Notes under the pieces: generated by a model
Told to the model about the DNA's origin: nothing
The model's database searches: none
What the model saw: only the letters and a program-made list of their open reading frames with translations
Virus record (IMG/VR): IMGVR_UViG_3300034341_000032
Coordinates: 1 to 33,789 of that record
Length of the DNA stretch: 33,789 nt
DNA from: a virus
Lineage: Duplodnaviria; Caudoviricetes
Reading direction: 5' to 3' (one strand)
Program-made: the position numbers and the translations under genes
Shown: piece by piece, positions 12,425 to 20,681 of the stretch
Numbering within the stretch: the stretch's first letter is position 1
How the letters are laid out: the number at the start of each line of letters is the position of its first letter

Positions 12425-12633
12425 TAGTCAGCCCTCCATATCCTATGATGGTTAAGGTTCTCTCTTCTTGTAGCAATTTTTATATCCCATGCTTTTGCAG
12501 CCTGTCTTATAGCTGCAACAAAGCCAGTACCAATAACGATGCTGTCTCCTTTCTTCATACGTTTTAAGATACTGTACTTTGATCCATATCCATTTGGCAT
12601 GGGTACGCCTTTTTCAATTTGATATTGTTCCAT
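12424..12633 (-). CDS. Small basic putative DNA-binding protein
   Basis: MEQYQIEKGVPMP..KY..MKKGDSI..RIWR, a common small phage family; TAATG coupling with erf. Confidence 0.65.
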   Translation of the reverse strand: MEQYQIEKGVPMPNGYGSKYSILKRMKKGDSIVIGTGFVAAIRQAAKAWDIKIATRRENLNHHRIWRAD

Positions 12634-13088
12634 TACCACTTCTCCTCTGGTGGCAACCTACCATCGTCATCAAGCTTAACGCTCTTGACCTTTGTTACCT
12701 TAGGGTTGGGCATGCTAGCTGAGTTACCGTCATCATCTTCTGATGGTAGTCCGAATGCAGACTGTAAGCCATAGCGTTTAGCATATGTGATACCGCTGCC
12801 CATCTTCTGTGGATCAGTAGGGTCTTTGACTAGGACAGGTGTGCGTCCAGTTATATACTCGCCCGACTCATGCATAACAATTGTAGTTACAAAGATGTGA
12901 TGCTCATTAAAGTCAACAGGCTGTGTAAATGTAAGGCCACACTTGCCAGCCTCCACTCTGACAGTCTCAATAACTTCTTCAAGACTAGCATAGTTTGATT
13001 TGAAGAATGGATTTTTTGCAGTCTTCTTAGCTGCTGCTCCAGTGTTGTGAAACTGGATAAGTGCTTTGGTTATGTTCTTTAGTTCCAT
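12633..13088 (-). CDS. erf: ERF-family ssDNA annealing recombinase
   Basis: KNPFFKSNYASLE...PQKMGSGITYAKRYGL..GLPSEDDDG signature. Confidence 0.92.
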   Translation of the reverse strand: MELKNITKALIQFHNTGAAAKKTAKNPFFKSNYASLEEVIETVRVEAGKCGLTFTQPVDFNEHHIFVTTIVMHESGEYITGRTPVLVKDPTDPQKMGSGITYAKRYGLQSAFGLPSEDDDGNSASMPNPKVTKVKSVKLDDDGRLPPEEKW

Positions 13089-13089
13089 T

Positions 13090-13911
13090 TTAGTTCTCCT
13101 TGACTGTGATGCGTAATGATCCGCGCTTGTCGCGTTTGATGGCTAGAAGATCACAGTATACTTCTCGCTCATCGTCACCAACCATAGCTTTGAGGTCAGA
13201 CTTGGCTGACTCAAATAGCTTTGCTGATTTCTCTTGTTCAATGTAGTCATGGCATCGGCTGATAAATTCGTTGTCGGCTGATGCATCTCGTTTGACTAGG
13301 CCATCGACCTTGATCTTATCTATAGATACAGGTGGCACTTCGTTGTCACCGAAAGGGCGGGTGTCCTCAGTGACATGCCTCCAGAACTCGGTGATGTGTA
13401 CCTTCATCTTGTTGATGTAGTCCCAATCTTTCTGTACATATACAGCAGCCCACTTGCGGTTGCCAAAGATTACAGATAGATAGCAGCCCTTGGCTTGATG
13501 TAGCCACATGTAGAACTGCATCTGTGGCATGTACATACTCAAACAATTTTCCATATTGTTTGTTTCGTATGTATGCTTGCACTCAATGATCTCGTCAGTA
13601 AATTTTCTGTCCATCATAATGTGACCATCGACTTGACCCTTGAGAGGCACACCTTCCCAGTTCATCTCTGCTGTAAGACCATTACCTTCGCCTTTGTGCA
13701 TGACATGCTGTACTGTTTCAGTGTCAGTGAACATCTGTTTATCAAACCAACGCTTGTTAAAGTGTTCAGTCTCTGAGCCTAGTTGTACTGCTAAATTATC
13801 TGAAAGATCATCAGGCTGTTTCTTGCCTGTCTTCTCTTCCCACAAGGCAACCCAATCGCCTCGCATAATGCGGTTCATATCTGAGCCGCCTAAAAATCCT
13901 AGTCTGTTCAT
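13090..13911 (-). CDS. YqaJ-like (lambda exonuclease family) recombination nuclease
   Basis: RLGFLGGSD..LWEEKTG..G..E..VDG..IIECK..Y.PQMQFYM motifs; adjacent to erf. Confidence 0.9.
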   Translation of the reverse strand: MNRLGFLGGSDMNRIMRGDWVALWEEKTGKKQPDDLSDNLAVQLGSETEHFNKRWFDKQMFTDTETVQHVMHKGEGNGLTAEMNWEGVPLKGQVDGHIMMDRKFTDEIIECKHTYETNNMENCLSMYMPQMQFYMWLHQAKGCYLSVIFGNRKWAAVYVQKDWDYINKMKVHITEFWRHVTEDTRPFGDNEVPPVSIDKIKVDGLVKRDASADNEFISRCHDYIEQEKSAKLFESAKSDLKAMVGDDEREVYCDLLAIKRDKRGSLRITVKEN

Positions 13912-13931: not shown

Positions 13932-13960
13932 ATTATACTGCAACTATGCAGTTAGATCAA
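13932..13960 (-). promoter_or_regulatory. Sigma70 promoter with operator dyad in spacer
   Basis: TTGATC-17bp-TATAAT on -; ACTGCA-N4-TGCAGT dyad at 13937-13952. Confidence 0.8.
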
Positions 13961-14570
13961 GCTTCTTTTGTTGTAGTGATGAGAGCATTAACTCTCTACG
14001 TCTGAGTCTCCACTTGATATGCTTGTGAAACTCTGAGTATGCAGGCCAGAAAGTGGTAGTCTCGGATACCTGCTTGATTGCATACTTAACTATGTCTGCT
14101 GGATACACTGACAGTTCATTAGCTATAGCTTGTATTCGCATTGCATGATCGTCTGATGACTCACCTGCTGGCTTCACCACCAGCGCAGCCAGCAGCGTGA
14201 GGTCATCGACTAACATTTCTTTAGGCATGGGAACCATAGCTTGCATAACTGTAGCTATACATTTGTTTACATCATCGACCGATGTTGATTCTATTCTGTA
14301 GCCACTGACAATAATATCTACGCCATCATCCTTGAAGCTACTGCGACTAATCTCTACTACCTTGCAGCCTGTTGTGCATTCTAGCGAAGTGAGAAGCAGA
14401 CTGTCGACTCTGGCTGGATTGTTTACCTGTAGCATTCGATCCAGACCTGCCTGTATTTGATCGCCACTCAATATGATTTGAACACCAGTATCTGTAGGCT
14501 CTGTCGAAGGACGCAAATTTTTTGCCTGTTGCTTGATGGTAGTTAACGAACTTATCTGCTTGAGCGACAT
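13944..14570 (-). CDS. Replication accessory protein (lambda P / G39P-like position and motif); start uncertain
   Basis: Follows the initiator; LSVYPADIVKYAIKQV..FWPAYSEF resembles the FxPxxxE motif of phage helicase loader or inhibitor proteins. Confidence 0.5.
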   Translation of the reverse strand: MSLKQISSLTTIKQQAKNLRPSTEPTDTGVQIILSGDQIQAGLDRMLQVNNPARVDSLLLTSLECTTGCKVVEISRSSFKDDGVDIIVSGYRIESTSVDDVNKCIATVMQAMVPMPKEMLVDDLTLLAALVVKPAGESSDDHAMRIQAIANELSVYPADIVKYAIKQVSETTTFWPAYSEFHKHIKWRLRRRELMLSSLQQKKLDLTA

Positions 14571-15009
14571 GATCTATAGCCTCCTTGTGTTTAGCATCTA
14601 TGGATTTGCAAAGGTCATCGCTTGGAACCCATCCATCCGGAACCTGACCCTTTGTATTCTTTGTTTCCTTATTGGTTATTGATAGGTTAGTGTTGCTGTC
14701 TGCAACAGAGGTGTTGCTGTCTGCAATAGGGGTGTTGCAGTGTGCAATATCTTTTGGGAATATTATGTAGCGTGTTGACTTGCCTGTGTGTCCACGATCT
14801 CTAGTTAGATAGCCGTGATCTTCCAGCCAGTGCAGCTTGCGCGTTACTGTAGCTACAGACATAGCAGTACGTTGTGATAGTCGGCTGAGACTAGGCCAGC
14901 ATAGGTGCTTGTCTTCATCTGCATGATCTGCAAGCACAACCATTAGCCATTTTGCATAGCAGTCAGGTATCTCTGACTTGATTGCCCTCGCCATTAGTAG
15001 GAATGCCAT
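14347..15009 (-). CDS. Lambda O-like replication initiator (N-terminal wHTH, HTH_36-like)
   Basis: AKWLMVVLADHAD...CWPSLSRLS..MSVATVTRKLHWLE..GYL; central iterons; F.NYH..G....FDRAYRYW C-terminal motif; AAGGAGAACTA RBS. Confidence 0.85.
   Translation of the reverse strand: MAFLLMARAIKSEIPDCYAKWLMVVLADHADEDKHLCWPSLSRLSQRTAMSVATVTRKLHWLEDHGYLTRDRGHTGKSTRYIIFPKDIAHCNTPIADSNTSVADSNTNLSITNKETKNTKGQVPDGWVPSDDLCKSIDAKHKEAIDHVAQADKFVNYHQATGKKFASFDRAYRYWCSNHIEWRSNTGRSGSNATGKQSSQSRQSASHFARMHNRLQGSRD
14690..14752. repeat. Three 21-bp iterons; putative replication origin
   Basis: GTGTTGCTGTCTGCAACAGAG / GTGTTGCTGTCTGCAATAGGG / GTGTTGCAGTGTGCAATATCT, each with a TTGC-N5-GCAA dyad, next to a T-rich tract at 14651-14685. 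Confidence 0.8.
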
Positions 15010-16160: not shown

Positions 16161-16509
16161 CTTCTTCCTTGTAAAAATCTTTGCCCCACATTATAAGCTG
16201 GCCTCTACCAGACTTACCTTTTCTTTTGCGATGATCAACAACTATCAACCCTTTTTCTTTTAATGATTTAAACCTAGCTGTAACTGTGCTGTATCTAAGG
16301 TGATCCAACCTATCTAATACGTCATCCATAATGCAGCCACTGTCAGTGAATGTGCAAATAGCATAGTAAACTTTTTTCTCCATGCGAGTGACATCAAGTG
16401 AATCAGCAGCATCATGGCTAGTGCTTGGGTCACGGCTGCGGGCTAGCTTAAATGCTGGCGTGTCAAACAAATCGTCAGCTATTTTTTGTCCTTGTTCTAT
16501 AACATTCAT
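16150..16509 (-). CDS. Winged-HTH DNA-binding protein
   Basis: ARSRDPSTSHDAA..STVTARF..L..KGLI..RKGKSGR.Q..W pattern; AAGGAGAACTAAC RBS. Confidence 0.7.
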   Translation of the reverse strand: MNVIEQGQKIADDLFDTPAFKLARSRDPSTSHDAADSLDVTRMEKKVYYAICTFTDSGCIMDDVLDRLDHLRYSTVTARFKSLKEKGLIVVDHRKRKGKSGRGQLIMWGKDFYKEEDDA

Positions 16510-16510
16510 G

Positions 16511-16861
16511 TTAGTTCTCCTTGTTAGAACATGTTGGATTATGAATCTTCATATCCCACCACATATTTTTTAATTTGCCTGTGTCTATGACAGGCGTTTT
16601 TGATTGGCATTCAGACTCGATAATAATTTTACCACTTGCTGTTTCAAAATCAGTCATCATATTCAATGCTGTTTCGATAGCATCGCCTTCATCTTCAGCG
16701 TACACAACTTTGTAAACTGTGTACTGCGTCATCCATTTGAGATCATCACCTTTGCAATGAGTGCAAGTATCTTGTTCAGAATACATATAATTGTTGCATT
16801 CTCTGCATTTAAGAAACTCTTCGACTGTGCGTCTGCCAGTTATATTAGTACGGAATATCAT
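16511..16861 (-). CDS. Hypothetical protein with CxxC-x10-CxxC
   Basis: CREC...CTHC; contiguous in the operon. Confidence 0.55.
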   Translation of the reverse strand: MIFRTNITGRRTVEEFLKCRECNNYMYSEQDTCTHCKGDDLKWMTQYTVYKVVYAEDEGDAIETALNMMTDFETASGKIIIESECQSKTPVIDTGKLKNMWWDMKIHNPTCSNKEN

Positions 16862-17051
16862 CGTTCAAATCCTGTGGTGGGTGGGCTGCTTCCCATGCTG
16901 CTGTCGCACGTTCAATAAACTTTTGCTTTTTGAAGCGTGGATTTGTAGCTGCAAGATCATCAGCCATAGTTAAGATTGCAGTAGGCCAAGGTAGCAGTGG
17001 TGCTACCTTGTCTGCGAGATACTCAAAGTGTCTTTGTTGCATCAGTGGCAT
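16845..17051 (-). CDS. Hypothetical small protein (NPRF motif)
   Basis: AAGGAG RBS, TAATG coupling; RHFEYLA...LAATNPRFKKQKF. Confidence 0.7.
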   Translation of the reverse strand: MPLMQQRHFEYLADKVAPLLPWPTAILTMADDLAATNPRFKKQKFIERATAAWEAAHPPQDLNDDIPY

Positions 17052-17263
17052 TACTTTATCTCCTTCAAAGGTGGACGATATGATTGATCTTCGTTTGCAT
17101 CACGATCAAGAACCTCAGTATATGTGTCATACACTTTGTCGATAGCCCACTTGCATTGGCTAATGGTGGTGGCAAACTCAGACTGTTCGTCATGGCAACG
17201 ATCGTGAAGCAAATCAATAATTTGTTTAGCTTCAGTGATCTGATTGATGAATGATATCTTCAT
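17051..17263 (-). CDS. Hypothetical protein (70 aa)
   Basis: Start reassigned to ATG 17263 behind AAGGAGAACTAAC. Confidence 0.7.
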   Translation of the reverse strand: MKISFINQITEAKQIIDLLHDRCHDEQSEFATTISQCKWAIDKVYDTYTEVLDRDANEDQSYRPPLKEIK

Positions 17264-17337
17264 GTTAGTTCTCCTTGTTAATGAATCAGTGAGCGACACC
17301 GCCCCTCGTATCGGGCGGGGGCGGTGACGCGAAACGA

Positions 17338-18222
17338 TTATGATGTTAGTGGTGAAGCAACATGCCAGCTATTTAGTTTGAATACTTTGGCTAACTGATT
17401 CTGACGCAGACGTTGCGTGTTAGCTGGTGAATTAGATTCGTCTGTATGACTAGCCCAGTAGGTGCATGCATTGTACAATGCCCACTTGTTACCACCTAGC
17501 TTGGCTTTATCTGCATACCAGTAGCCCATCAGTCGCTCAAGCTGACGCTCATTCCATTTGAATGTGCTTGTCTTGTTGGGTGTGCGGCAAATGGCATGCT
17601 TGAAGAATCGTTCAGCCATATCATTATCTACGCTGGTTGACATCCAAGATTTGTATACATCTTTTGTATTTAGAAATGCCTCAAGCCCTGCTTGTATCTT
17701 GGCTGCACTGCCTTCTACATTGACATTGGTTGTGTGCTTTGCCCATGTATTAGCTACAGTGTCAGCATGTGTGCATCCATTGAGACACCATAAGCGCAAG
17801 CCGAATGCTGATTGCTGGAATGCCCAGCTACTATCGTATGAGTTAAAGAACTGCACGCGGAACCTTACATAGTCACCGACTGCTGGCTCCATTACTAGGT
17901 CAGCGAAGTCGATAGTGCCGCGCAGCTTGGCACCGTTATCAAAGATTTCAATTTTTGTATTGTAATCTTTAGATACATTCGACTGGCTAACAGCATCCAT
18001 GACTGAGTTAACTACATCGTCATGCTTGATTGCTTTGTACTTAGAGCCATGAACACCAAGCACTTCATTAGTATCTGTGCGTACAATGCAGCGAGCCATT
18101 GACTCAGGTACATTGTGATAGGTTGGGTCATTGTCTTTGATTGCTGCCAAGTTCCAAGTCTCTACTGGAAAAGACCAGCAATCTTCTACTAGGCTGTTGC
18201 CTATAACAGTTACTCCATCCAT
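17338..18222 (-). CDS. DUF932 (LGT_TIGR03299-like) protein
   Basis: VRTDTNEVLGV....Y...NSYDSS...RLWCLNG...KHT...GNKWALYNA.T...H motifs. Confidence 0.85.
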   Translation of the reverse strand: MDGVTVIGNSLVEDCWSFPVETWNLAAIKDNDPTYHNVPESMARCIVRTDTNEVLGVHGSKYKAIKHDDVVNSVMDAVSQSNVSKDYNTKIEIFDNGAKLRGTIDFADLVMEPAVGDYVRFRVQFFNSYDSSWAFQQSAFGLRLWCLNGCTHADTVANTWAKHTTNVNVEGSAAKIQAGLEAFLNTKDVYKSWMSTSVDNDMAERFFKHAICRTPNKTSTFKWNERQLERLMGYWYADKAKLGGNKWALYNACTYWASHTDESNSPANTQRLRQNQLAKVFKLNSWHVASPLTS

Positions 18223-18234
18223 TGTTAGTTCTCC

Positions 18235-18393
18235 TTATGAATGATGGCGCAGTATTACGCCGCTGATTATCACAACTAATGAGAACATCAGTAATGTGAT
18301 ATGAATGTAGAATCCTGCGTCAGTCACAGGATTCAATGCTGAACATATGATTGTCATCATAAATCCAATTCCGATTAAACTATTTGCGATCAT
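18235..18393 (-). CDS. Small two-TM membrane protein (52 aa)
   Basis: Start ATG 18393 behind AAGGAGAACTAAC; two hydrophobic segments. Confidence 0.7.
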   Translation of the reverse strand: MIANSLIGIGFMMTIICSALNPVTDAGFYIHITLLMFSLVVIISGVILRHHS

Positions 18394-18408
18394 GTTAGTT
18401 CTCCTTGT

Positions 18409-18450
18409 TGCATACTTGCAGTATAAACTATGTATTGCAGAGTGCAATAC
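18409..18450 (-). promoter_or_regulatory. Sigma70 promoter with operator dyads
   Basis: TTGCAC-16bp-TATACT on -; TGCA-N4-TGCA at 18409-18420; perfect dyad GTATTGCA-GAG-TGCAATAC at 18432-18450. Confidence 0.65.
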
Positions 18451-18624
18451 CTAATATTCAATATGTATGCCGTGGCGTGTGATGCTGCAATCATCATTGC
18501 ATTCATTATCAATTTGCTTTTGCTCATAGCAGCTATAGCAATACATATCATCTGCTTCTGGGCAATACACTGATGCGTTGCGTTGATCGCAAGTCGCGCA
18601 TTTACTCCGTCTAGTATAAAGCAT
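18451..18624 (-). CDS. Cys-rich B-box-like zinc-finger protein (57 aa; not in ORF track)
   Basis: GAAGGAG RBS; MLYTRRSKCATCDQRNASVYCPEADDMYCYSCYEQKQIDNECNDDCSITRHGIHIEY. Confidence 0.7.
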   Translation of the reverse strand: MLYTRRSKCATCDQRNASVYCPEADDMYCYSCYEQKQIDNECNDDCSITRHGIHIEY

Positions 18625-18781
18625 TTACATCTCCTTCACGGTTCCATTTCAGATACTGAAAGTTGGAATCGAATTTTCAAACACGAATTGTTTAAAGTCT
18701 GCCGCGCAAGTACTCAGCCGTGGCGTGTTCCCCCTGCGGGGTGCGGGGGGAGCGACTAGCGACACCCGCTGGATGGAACAT

Positions 18782-18813
18782 AAAAAAAGCTCCGCAGCCG
18801 AAGCTGCGAAGCT
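18782..18813 (-). terminator. Rho-independent terminator
   Basis: On -: AGCUUCGCAGC-UUCG-GCUGCGGAGCU followed by a U run; cUUCGg tetraloop; just after the stop at 18828. Confidence 0.92.
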
Positions 18814-18827
18814 GATGTGTCAGTTAC

Positions 18828-19244
18828 CTATGCTGACTTCTTCTTGAGTTGCTTGTACTGTGCGTCCAGTGCATCCATTGCACTCGCTGCTGCGGCTGAC
18901 TTCTGATGCTCATCAGGAAATAACTGCTGCGAACACTCGGTTAACAGTTGCTTTAGCAGTTCGTTGCATTCCAACTGTGTCTGCTGCCATTCGATGTCGC
19001 GGTTACGCTGTAGAATCTTGTCGTTATCAAGGACAACACCATGTTCTTTGTGTTCGATGTAGTCGTTAAGATTCTCATCTTGCAACTGCTCAATCTTCTT
19101 GTTCTTTGAGTTCGTGTTCCAGTCAACATCATTGATGAACTTGGTCACAAAATACTGAAGTGTTGATTGGTGTGTACGATCAGAAAGTGTGAAGACACGA
19201 TTGAGGTCTTGTGCGAAACCGTTTTTGTTTGATTGCTTAGTCAT
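18828..19244 (-). CDS. First early gene, helical/coiled-coil hypothetical protein (138 aa)
   Basis: Start ATG 19244 behind AAAGGAGAACTAA; has its own terminator. Confidence 0.8.
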   Translation of the reverse strand: MTKQSNKNGFAQDLNRVFTLSDRTHQSTLQYFVTKFINDVDWNTNSKNKKIEQLQDENLNDYIEHKEHGVVLDNDKILQRNRDIEWQQTQLECNELLKQLLTECSQQLFPDEHQKSAAAASAMDALDAQYKQLKKKSA

Positions 19245-19845
19245 CTTAGTTCTCCTTTGTGATACCGAGACCCTTCTCGGCTTATGCCCCATCCAGATCA
19301 TGGCTGTTATCAAAAGGCAAGTCAGGCTCGGGCGGCATTGGATGATCGCCTACAGCCCGCTTGCGCGATAGCGCATGATAAGCGCGGGCTGTTAGTCAGC
19401 TTATGAACAGATCGCCTCTATGCGATATGAGCATAAGCTGGCGTGGCGACCACCAATGGGCGAGACTTGCCTTTGGATGGCAGTTATGATGTGGATAATG
19501 GGGCTTGCCGAGAGGGGATCGGTATCTAGCAAACAAAGGAGAACGCGTAGATGACTTGCAATCAATTTACAAAAACGAGTGTAGCGCGAGGCATCAAGCG
19601 TGGCTTCACAATAGCTGATCCTTTCATTGGTGCTGTGTATTGGTGAAAATACCCATGTGTATTGAGCGTGTTTCATGCGCGATGTAACGTCCGTCAGTGA
19701 TGGGATCAACAGATCACATCTCTGTCGCAACGGCCATCTGGCGCATGAGTATGCCACGCTCATTGCCTTGTTGCTGCGATGTGTTGCAACGAGACAGTCG
19801 ATGCTACCCTTAGCAATCGACAAGCTAGTGGTTAGTGGCTAGGTG
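19145..19845 (+). other. Large strand-specific folded element (ncRNA or ssDNA structure)
   Basis: Imperfect inverted repeat 19145-19330/19461-19646 enclosing a two-hairpin Y, plus further hairpins to ~19845. Substitution mismatches in the aligned core are G.U or purine-purine on +. Confidence 0.8.
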
Positions 19846-19851
19846 TGTAAA

Positions 19852-19889
19852 TTGTGCGGTTGACAAGCCGAGAATAATTGACTGATAGT
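19852..19889 (+). promoter_or_regulatory. Putative late promoter for terS
   Basis: TTGTGCGG followed by consensus TTGACA at 19860-19865; variant of the TTGTGCGTTG motif; weak -10. Confidence 0.55.
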
Positions 19890-19913
19890 GGGGGGGGACA
19901 CACGGGGGGGCAG

Positions 19914-20285
19914 ATGACCGAGATTGTGAAGCTTACCGATAAACAGACTGCATTGGTGGATACACTTGTAGCAACAGGCTGTAGCATAACAGAAGCAGCA
20001 AAGCTTGCTGGGTACGCTGATGGCGAGTCCGGTAGAGTAAGTGCTAGCAAGGCTTTGCGGACAGGACATGTCCAGCAGTACATGATGCAACGGATAGGTG
20101 AGAGTATGGGTCTCAATGCTACGGTGGCTGCGGCTAAGATGCTGAACTTAGCAAGAGGAGCCAAGAGTGAGTACGTTCAGCTAGAAGCTAGTAAAGATAT
20201 CTTGGACAGGGCTGGCTTCAAGGCTCCGGACAAGCACATGCATTTGCATAAGGGTGATATTAGTGTCAGTATAGACTTGAGCTAG
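19914..20285 (+). CDS. terS: Terminase small subunit
   Basis: KLTDKQTALV..CSITEAAKLAGY HTH and SEYVQLEASKDILDRAG motif; first gene of the late arm. Start reassigned to ATG 19914. Confidence 0.8.
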   Translation: MTEIVKLTDKQTALVDTLVATGCSITEAAKLAGYADGESGRVSASKALRTGHVQQYMMQRIGESMGLNATVAAAKMLNLARGAKSEYVQLEASKDILDRAGFKAPDKHMHLHKGDISVSIDLS

Positions 20286-20426
20286 ATTCGCAATGCGAAT
20301 CGTTGCTCTGCGTGGGTGGGGTCCAAAAAAGAGGGCACGTGAATGGCAAGGTGTCCCTAACTCACATGATAGTTAAAAAAAGCTCGCAAGGTTTAGATTT
20401 ATTTTTTTTAGTCAGAGGTTCGTCTT

Positions 20427-20681
20427 ATGTGTGTAAGTAGTGGTGGTAGCGGGGCTAGTACAGATTATAAGGACACCAGTGAAGAGCCTATCGTTAGCAA
20501 GTACGAACTTACTGTTGAGCAGAAGAAAGAAAACAAGCGTCGCAAAAGCTTACTTGCTTCCAAGAAAAAGAAGTCTGGCGGTGATGGTGGTGATAACACA
20601 GACCTTGGTGCTGGCAGTAGCGGCAATTGGAATAGTGGACTTTCAACGCCTACTGCGAGTAGTGGAAACGTAATCACATGA
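20427..20681 (+). CDS. Small Gly/Lys-rich protein (MC-start)
   Basis: GAGG RBS; ATGA coupling to the next gene. Confidence 0.65.
   Translation: MCVSSGGSGASTDYKDTSEEPIVSKYELTVEQKKENKRRKSLLASKKKKSGGDGGDNTDLGAGSSGNWNSGLSTPTASSGNVIT

Follow-up and report, generated by a model that had tools for sequence, protein, structure and literature searches.

A fold-back that tracks the first early gene in polymerase-less marine podophages and may act as a folded single strand of DNA

Why should a tailed phage carry, between its first early gene and its terminase promoter, a diverged inverted copy of the start of that gene? The question is raised by a viral DNA of 33,789 bases (the window, meaning the whole stretch that was analysed), the record of which is classed as 100% complete and which holds terminase, portal and capsid genes. 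The T7-like head and internal-virion genes and the terminase lie on the + strand and a block of early genes on the - strand, the latter including an O-like replication initiator, a Holliday junction resolvase, a YqaJ/RecE-like exonuclease, Erf and an SSB. Neither a polymerase or primase family nor a transfer (conjugation) family was detected among the 29 and 27 proteins scanned, which represent part of the window's ORFs; a virion-type RNA polymerase was likewise not found among these proteins, the largest ORF (1402 aa) matching an internal virion protein. The nearest cultured relative is Pelagibacter phage EXVC031P Hodr (OQ414635.1; TerL 66%, TerS 63%, capsid 54%). OQ414635.1, titled Hodr, bears Baldr locus tags and OQ414636.1, titled Baldr, bears Hodr tags (L100 and L107 in our set), and the two names may be swapped between the GenBank records. 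The genome matches are MAG contigs with mixed labels. The features that frame the element are as follows (counts refer to the related loci and clusters described below):

18780..18813, - strand: intrinsic terminator of gene 1, an RNA-type control hairpin with a C(UUCG)G loop
18828..19244, - strand: gene 1, the first early gene, 138 aa, with the SD AAGGAG and the C-terminus KKSA
19178..19323, + strand: left arm, template of the presumed promoter zone, the leader, the RBS and the first 22 codons of gene 1
19352..19392, + strand: ear 1, tip TGCGC-GATA-GCGCA, seen in folds
19365-19372, + strand: tip of ear 1, GCGATAGC, a measured DNA mini-hairpin with a Tm of 71 C (PMC13037366, Table 1)
19395..19442, + strand: ear 2, seen in folds; dispensable, missing in L027 and L030
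19464..19620, + strand: right arm, a gapped and diverged mirror of the coding-strand sequence, with only a 31-codon frame
19676..19745, + strand: stem module AACGTCCGTCA...CGCAACGG with variable flanking helices, in 15 loci of 4 clusters
19860..19889, + strand: promoter-like site of terS, TTGACA-18-GATAGT; TTGACA in 36 of 41 clusters
19890..19910, + strand: double G-run G8-ACACAC-G7 that directly follows the -10 of terS; shared by 65 of 110 loci (34 clusters)
19914..20285, + strand: terminase small subunit (terS)

The element occupies the space between gene 1 and the promoter-like site of terS. Of the pairing originally predicted (19145-19330 with 19461-19646), a strand-neutral alignment retains the core, 19178-19323 with 19464-19620, whereas the outer part (19145-19177 with 19621-19646) is weak, appearing partly in the DNA minimum-energy fold and being absent from the DNA centroid and the RNA fold. 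The BLAST self-match spans 19178-19620, and the arms are only about 70% alike. Their columns comprise 120 Watson-Crick and 8 G·T pairs and no A·C, and of the mismatches 11 are purine-purine and 2 pyrimidine-pyrimidine; all eight transitions of the core are thus G·T on the + strand, as had been proposed from a hand alignment, and the accompanying statement that the other substitutions are purine-purine applies to 11 of 13. Whichever strand is folded, as RNA or as DNA, 19140-19650 gives a long two-eared rod, and both ears (19352-19392 with its GATA tip, and 19395-19442) are present as described. All four folds lie below every shuffle (z -15.2 to -17.7). Energies are lower on the + strand (RNA -271 versus -222, DNA -150 versus -128 kcal/mol), a preference that the z-scores do not share, so that the case for a preferred strand rests on the types of mismatch.

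This is the sole strong local fold-back of the window (score 129.5; runner-up 36). A misassembly, judged unlikely at the outset, can be dismissed: a single contig from another study (run X3) covers 16406-20352, and hence the entire element, with 2 differences. Contigs of run X1 break at 19896/19898, inside the double G-run. The DNA runs (4 of the 15 holders) revealed no ends or strand-change joints in their contigs, which may not show them. No pairing was detected between 19625-19870 and the rest of gene 1 (24.0 versus 23.2 shuffled), and a profile of local folding over 120 nt marked out no single-stranded zone.

Is the mirror peculiar to this genome? Related loci were fetched by gene 1 (19), by terS (80), by the terS of Hodr (80) and from genomes (20), and 149 loci were analysed (the window, Hodr, L020-L099, L108-L113 and L128-L188). 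Distinct loci with an identifiable gene 1 number 110, the others being duplicates or lacking upstream DNA or an anchor, and these form 56 clusters below 50% amino acid identity in gene 1. For each, the segment that starts 100 nt before gene 1 and extends 70 nt into it was matched downstream, with a score of at least 60 taken as a mirror. By this measure 41 of the 56 clusters have a structure comparable to that of the window, against 4 of 3080 cross-phage pairs, and each mirror thus follows its own gene. Double-sided changes are found in 33 of 73 consensus pairs among ten close relatives. The fold-back is real, selected and clade-wide in these polymerase-less marine podophages, cultured Hodr included. 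No comparable fold-back was found in HTVC010P, Baldr, MEP301, Vibrio 1.138.O, SI2 or 6.4 kb of BcepC6B (best score 50.5 versus 129.5).

The boundaries of the mirror are informative. On the inner side it begins 44-100 nt before the ATG (median 81, within a search range of at most 100); on the outer side it usually reaches 50-100 nt into the ORF. The whole gene is mirrored in 17 loci (7 clusters), and long non-coding mirrors run on beyond the stop codon by about 35-70 nt and end at the terminator. A gene-covering mirror is missing in 15 of the 56 clusters, and in at least 5 of 15 loci examined (2 without a gene call) the rod is confined to the promoter zone (L033, L040, L043, L081 and L084). The number and sequence of the ears vary freely among relatives. 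Arms, ears and gene 1 also recombine as modules, L021 combining a gene of the L024 type with a mirror of the window type, which pairs less well. A second architecture, in which 500-1000 nt are nearly all small hairpins, was observed in L033, L040, L043, L052, L056, L081, L084 and L085; in several of these a rod with the conserved ACACA...GTGTGTGT spans the promoter zone, and in the intergenic regions of L033 and L040 both strands fold equally.

In at least two lineages, a whole-gene duplex was gained with another gene, terS, as the partner. Hodr has a short non-coding mirror; beyond it, the terS promoter and about 250 nt of the terS ORF carry on the match, opposite the remainder of the gene-1 ORF (L100:4140-5300). 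Gene 1 of Hodr scores 175 against its own terS region (cross-phage maximum 60; synonymous shuffles 61+-10), and that of the unrelated, GC-rich L094 scores 173 (cross-phage maximum 58; synonymous shuffles 42+-10); L035, L038 and L039 reach 90-102. The excess is kept when terS coding DNA alone is considered (L100 93.5 versus 46+-12, L094 111 versus 32+-4, L130 108.5 versus 36+-8), and the resemblance recurs in L128-L130, L136, L140 and L145. Most loci are at background, including the window (37). In Hodr and L094 the partner on the terS side takes in promoter DNA that lies ahead of the terS transcript. It is unlikely that arm-to-arm conversion produced this complementarity.

Which strand folds? 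Across the 41 clusters, G·T exceeds A·C by 238 to 56, in 33 clusters against 4 (sign test p 1e-6; the clusters share ancestry, so that such p-values overstate independence). G·A likewise exceeds C·T (189 versus 65) and G·G exceeds C·C (45 versus 8), and this asymmetry among transversions is not expected from deamination alone. The bias favours folding of the + strand, which is the template of gene 1. This reading is weakened by three observations: A·A is rarer than T·T (48 versus 80), contrary to the purine trend; only 17 of 28 AT-rich loci have more G·T than A·C, and 8 show the reverse; and Hodr folds equally on both strands, slightly better on the - strand (-236.9 versus -244.0). Selection on a folded + strand, as first proposed, is consequently backed by the clade-wide mismatch bias, and finds little echo in the AT-rich loci and none in Hodr.

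The tips of the hairpins bear on whether the folded strand is DNA or RNA. Perfect small hairpins between gene 1 and terS were counted in the 110 loci, with no energy model, and compared with shuffles. On the + strand, c(GNA)g occurs in 18 distinct contexts in 23 of the 110 loci (2.0 in shuffles), c(GNYA)g in 6 (1.0), c(GNRA)g in 5 (1.8) and c(UUCG)g in 0. Terminators of gene 1, which served as control RNA hairpins on the - strand, show c(UUCG)g in 10 contexts and 25 of 106 loci. Flanking late and early genes contain c(GNA)g near chance, and the c(GNA)g result is the same on a 36-locus set. Hairpins of the types GCGNAGC and GCGNNAGC are DNA mini-hairpins that are far less stable as RNA: GCGAAGC melts at 76.5 C and GCGATAGC at 71 C, r(GCGAAAGC) at only 39 C (PMC13037366). 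Such tips occur at ssDNA origins, at the G4, ST-1 and ssiA priming sites and at N4 promoters (PMC13037366). At the position of the ear-1 tip, relatives have GCGAAGC or GCGACAGC. Because the + strand tips are C(GNA)G and the terminators are capped by the RNA-type C(UUCG)G, a DNA-type fold is favoured; the - strand also shows c(GNA)g in 9 contexts (5 loci; 2.4 in shuffles), which weakens the argument for the + strand. From these patterns it can be inferred fairly well that the + strand is what folds, and that it does so as DNA and not as RNA; a DNA-level fold of the + strand is, in our judgement, probable.

How might a folded + strand serve the phage? In the simplest account, favoured by strand, loops, boundaries and the co-option of terS, more than 1 kb of the + strand would be single-stranded at times and would fold, so that the mirror in the right arm becomes a surrogate coding (non-template) strand of gene 1. 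Host RNA polymerase could then transcribe gene 1 from the folded + strand with the real coding strand missing, the mirror serving both promoter binding and RNA displacement. We see about even chances that the co-evolving mirror lets + strand ssDNA form a stand-in duplex for transcription of gene 1 by the host polymerase. The account is supported by loci that keep a rod over the promoter zone only, by long mirrors that end at the terminator and by the 17 loci that mirror the entire gene. With more reserve, we suggest that the clade might pass an obligatory stage with more than 1 kb of ssDNA and might have evolved a self-duplexing transcription unit from promoter to terminator; some lineages would then have bent the protein sequence of gene 1 to pair with the terminase gene. 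Against the transcription reading stand the 15 of 56 clusters that lack a gene-covering mirror and the background terS score of the window (37). A single-stranded + strand DNA structure was one of two options offered originally, and its general form is supported by DNA-type tips, mismatch bias and bounds running from promoter zone to terminator, while the specific arguments from a better -10 and from priming fare worse.

The -10 argument held that the right arm supplies a better hexamer (TATGAT, 19485-19490) than the genomic copy (CATGAT). The pair is not conserved, L030 having TGTGAT/CGTGAT, and the better -10 lies in the right arm in 10 clusters and in the genomic copy in 13, with 15 ties (38 clusters). 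That the mirror's -10 is not generally better weakens the transcription reading. A PWM gives 19 versus 15, which is not significant; hexamers with at least 5/6 matches number 10 versus 5 in the promoter zone and 5 versus 9 in the ORF control, and a -10 count of 37 versus 15 was not dereplicated and had no control. The right arm also holds a bulged GATAAT (19494-19499), which the genomic copy lacks. In the mirrors of the window, L027, L030 and L045, the bulged GATAAT is followed by a G-run, resembling the terS site, and sits about 7 nt before a small 5' hairpin; ATAAT bulges occur in the AT-rich members L112, L156 and L170. Promoter reconstitution by the mirror is suggested by these motifs. The SD together with the start codon is kept by the mirror in only 14 of 38 clusters.

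Where would the single strand come from? Two features elsewhere in the early block bear on this question:

12633..13911, - strand: the annealing protein Erf and a YqaJ/RecE-like exonuclease, by which the phage itself might generate 3' single-stranded tails
14690..14747, no strand assigned: three 16-bp iterons in the O-like initiator gene (14347-15009), adjoining an AT-rich tract

The single strand could be a 3' tail left by 5'->3' resection of the - strand that starts where the genome has a free end beyond terS, the resecting enzyme being either a host AddAB/RecBCD-type nuclease at entry or the phage exonuclease. Resection at the terS-side end is favoured because the 3' end of the + strand lies there, the early genes point away from it, and the phage has its own exonuclease and Erf; we offer it as a tentative proposal by analogy. 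Early genes likewise point away from the entering end in T7. Both the packaging mode, which was not found in print in the literature searched, and the entering end are assumed here from general knowledge. RecBCD leaves a long 3' tail after Chi (PMC9836394). A Chi-like motif, GNTGGTGG, was considered and set aside: its + strand bias downstream of terS (52 versus 4) is that of the coding strand, and the intergenic count is 4 versus 2. The lack of a primase, which the original prediction had invoked, creates no special need for priming, as an O-like initiator with three iterons is present. By its layout, with iterons in the initiator gene as in lambda, 14690-14747 is likely to be a lambda-like replication origin, 4.5 kb from the fold-back. 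A 208-aa ORF of no family (13944-14570) lies downstream of the initiator gene and overlaps it by 224 nt.

The product of gene 1 would, on the surrogate-strand account, be a short-lived establishment factor made even after loss of the coding strand. A profile of 37 sequences retrieves 124 representatives at 50% identity. The AlphaFold model is all-helical, with a long helical hairpin and flanking helices (pLDDT 90.6). No PHROG or Pfam family was assigned (2 marginal matches among the 72 of 124 profile matches scanned), no PDB sequence match fell below E 0.09, the Atlas gave no match, and fold searches returned no significant match, only generic coiled coils and helical hairpins. The C-terminus is A or AS in 32 of 40 mirror-bearing clusters; terminal A or AS recalls ClpXP degrons, and such ends fit a transient product. 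A Gam-type DNA-mimic nuclease inhibitor finds no support: the median net charge of -0.5 (40 clusters) argues against it, and the fold matches are generic. That gene 1 is not acidic, unlike Gam-type mimics, also weakens the proposed role.

The same fold could instead be RNA, as the second original option of a large antisense transcript would have it. A + strand RNA, antisense through gene 1 and continuing into the mirror, might keep its antisense arm shielded by the mirror until gene-1 mRNA displaces it. The mismatch bias suits RNA equally, with G·U in place of G·T; the spacer between SD and ATG, where positions -4 and -3 are unpaired in 20-22 of 36, could act as a toehold; the scarcity of SD and start codons in the mirrors looks as if they were transcribed yet untranslated; and contigs from RNA runs cover the region. 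These contigs (X16, X17, X18 and X20; 4 of 5 RNA-labelled rows) are scattered, of low depth and with no strand assigned, and the arm depth of 1-8 in X16 and X17 is not readable as expression. Several observations disfavour the RNA: the loops are GNA or GNYA and never UUCG; no Rfam family was found, with 3 matches of Rfam 15 in 18200-20500 (E 0.69-4.8, all far below the gathering threshold) and 0 in 10 related loci; the outer boundary shifts from inside the ORF to the terminator; and TTGACA, present at terS in 36 of 41 clusters, precedes the left arm in 0 of 41, which is a weak test since gene 1 has one upstream in only 6 of 41. We regard an antisense RNA as unlikely.

Nor need a folded DNA strand be transcribed. 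It might serve replication or end protection, as an ssi/sso-type priming site, by self-priming or as a nuclease-resistant cap, with gene 1 merely covered, and such a function would share the loop and strand evidence. Mini-hairpins mark ssDNA priming sites and bind SSB poorly (PMC13037366), Frpo-type promoters can also prime (PMC12672017), and the intergenic DNA of the second architecture is a dense field of hairpins. Moreover, of 41 contigs truncated on the upstream side, 12 stop less than about 250 nt ahead of terS, and the X1 breaks lie close by; this cluster may mark a genome end or merely a variable border, and contig breaks also come from variable-DNA borders and G-runs. Priming, however, requires neither an arm of 450-600 bp that extends to the terminator nor a coding sequence adapted to terS, and the lambda-like origin lies elsewhere. 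We consider this reading improbable as well.

A translational lock, in which a - strand mRNA starting right of the mirror folds back and buries the gene-1 RBS, would suit a mirror that ends where the RNA ends, the well-paired SD and the slightly better - strand fold of Hodr. Yet the - strand would have to hold 238 A·C against 56 G·U and 45 C·C against 8 G·G in the 41 clusters, TTGACA is found right of the mirror on the - strand in 1 of 41, stable tips are mostly on the other strand, and the leader of Hodr would be antisense to terS, which leaves the lock only a slim chance. Least probable is an inverted duplication that has no function and whose arms stay similar through template switching or arm-to-arm conversion. 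The mosaic arms swapped between relatives (L021) and the slight strand bias of AT-rich mirrors might speak for it; it is contradicted by the strand-biased mismatches, by arms only about 70% alike, by boundaries fixed to the transcription unit and by the complementarity of two functional coding sequences that conversion would damage.

Returning to the surrogate strand, the nearest precedent in action comes from plasmids. Frpo/ssi ssDNA promoters of the F and IncI1 leading regions (classes 1-3) use a folded single strand as a surrogate non-template strand (PMC12672017, PMC11541004; Masai and Arai 1997 as cited there). The phage loci share with them a large imperfect stem-loop of the template strand just upstream of an early gene, a 3' arm that would stand in for the non-template strand, and the same polarity of arm, promoter zone and gene. 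They differ in belonging to a tailed phage, the scanned proteins of which include no transfer functions, rather than to a conjugative leading region, in arms of up to 600 bp that reach into or across the ORF, and in that the partner can be another gene. For the -35/-10 reconstitution of Frpo/ssi, the phages offer suggestive bulges (window, L030 and L045; L112, L156 and L170), against the 10 versus 13 clusters above. Blastn of 19140-19900 against 72,556 plasmids gave one 31-nt match (E 0.7) and no similarity to Frpo/ssi. The element is likely to be Frpo-like in action, by analogy, and not a member of the Frpo family.

Other systems share single traits. N4 vRNAP promoters and the ssi mini-hairpins of G4, ST-1, alpha3 and RSF1010 (PMC13037366) have C(GNA)G or C(GNNA)G tips on the functional strand, and GNA-capped template-strand hairpins as in N4 were found in the clade, the window tip GCGATAGC being the GNNA form; theirs, however, have stems of only some 5-8 bp and are recognised by a phage polymerase or a primase, whereas the structure here spans 0.4-1.3 kb and the scanned proteins gave neither an RNA polymerase nor a primase. 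In hok fbi and IS10 RNA-OUT, a sequence complementary to RBS and start adjoins the RBS, as in the phage element, which differs in favouring the template strand, in its DNA-type tips and in a mirror that includes promoter-zone DNA. Parvoviral termini form Y- or T-shaped hairpins, and the rod of the window is similarly capped by two ears; this likeness, drawn early on, proved superficial, in that the element lies inside the record and is crossed by contigs (which do not show virion ends), relatives have altered ears or lack them, and there is no mirrored genome. No tailed-phage description of such an element, in Hodr or elsewhere, was found in a literature search of main texts and few subscription journals, in keeping with the earlier impression that no equivalent was described for this phage type.

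Tailed phages are assumed to begin transcription on duplex DNA. If the surrogate-strand account is true, their cycle would include a single-stranded step, so far unrecognised, during entry or at an end that has been processed, and gene expression could be kept after a host nuclease removes one strand. Two protein-coding sequences evolving toward complementarity at the DNA level would be an unusual constraint. The clade is large, with terS-pattern matches in about 1400 IMG/VR stretches, and cultured Hodr has the extreme form, which makes the idea directly testable.

Several further elements were observed. The AACGTCCGTCA...CGCAACGG stem, with covarying flanks, recurs about 190-330 nt upstream of terS in several subgroups and has a GCGAAGC tip in L256; it is possibly a protein-binding site on the folded strand, and its remaining pattern matches sit in unrelated genes and look like chance. 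The double G-run is a candidate G-quadruplex, R-loop or packaging signal. The terS promoters have a perfect TTGACA and a degenerate -10 of which only the second-position A is constant, as in alphaproteobacterial promoters. A GC-rich branched hairpin at 18719-18775, between the gene-1 terminator and the next early gene, contains GCGACTAGC, which is also a side branch in the mirrors of L021, L023, L024, L034 and L087. Finally, the early genes have a long leader motif in common (TTAGTTCTCCTT on the + strand, AAGGAGAACTAA on the - strand), with at least 6 copies between 12303 and 19261.
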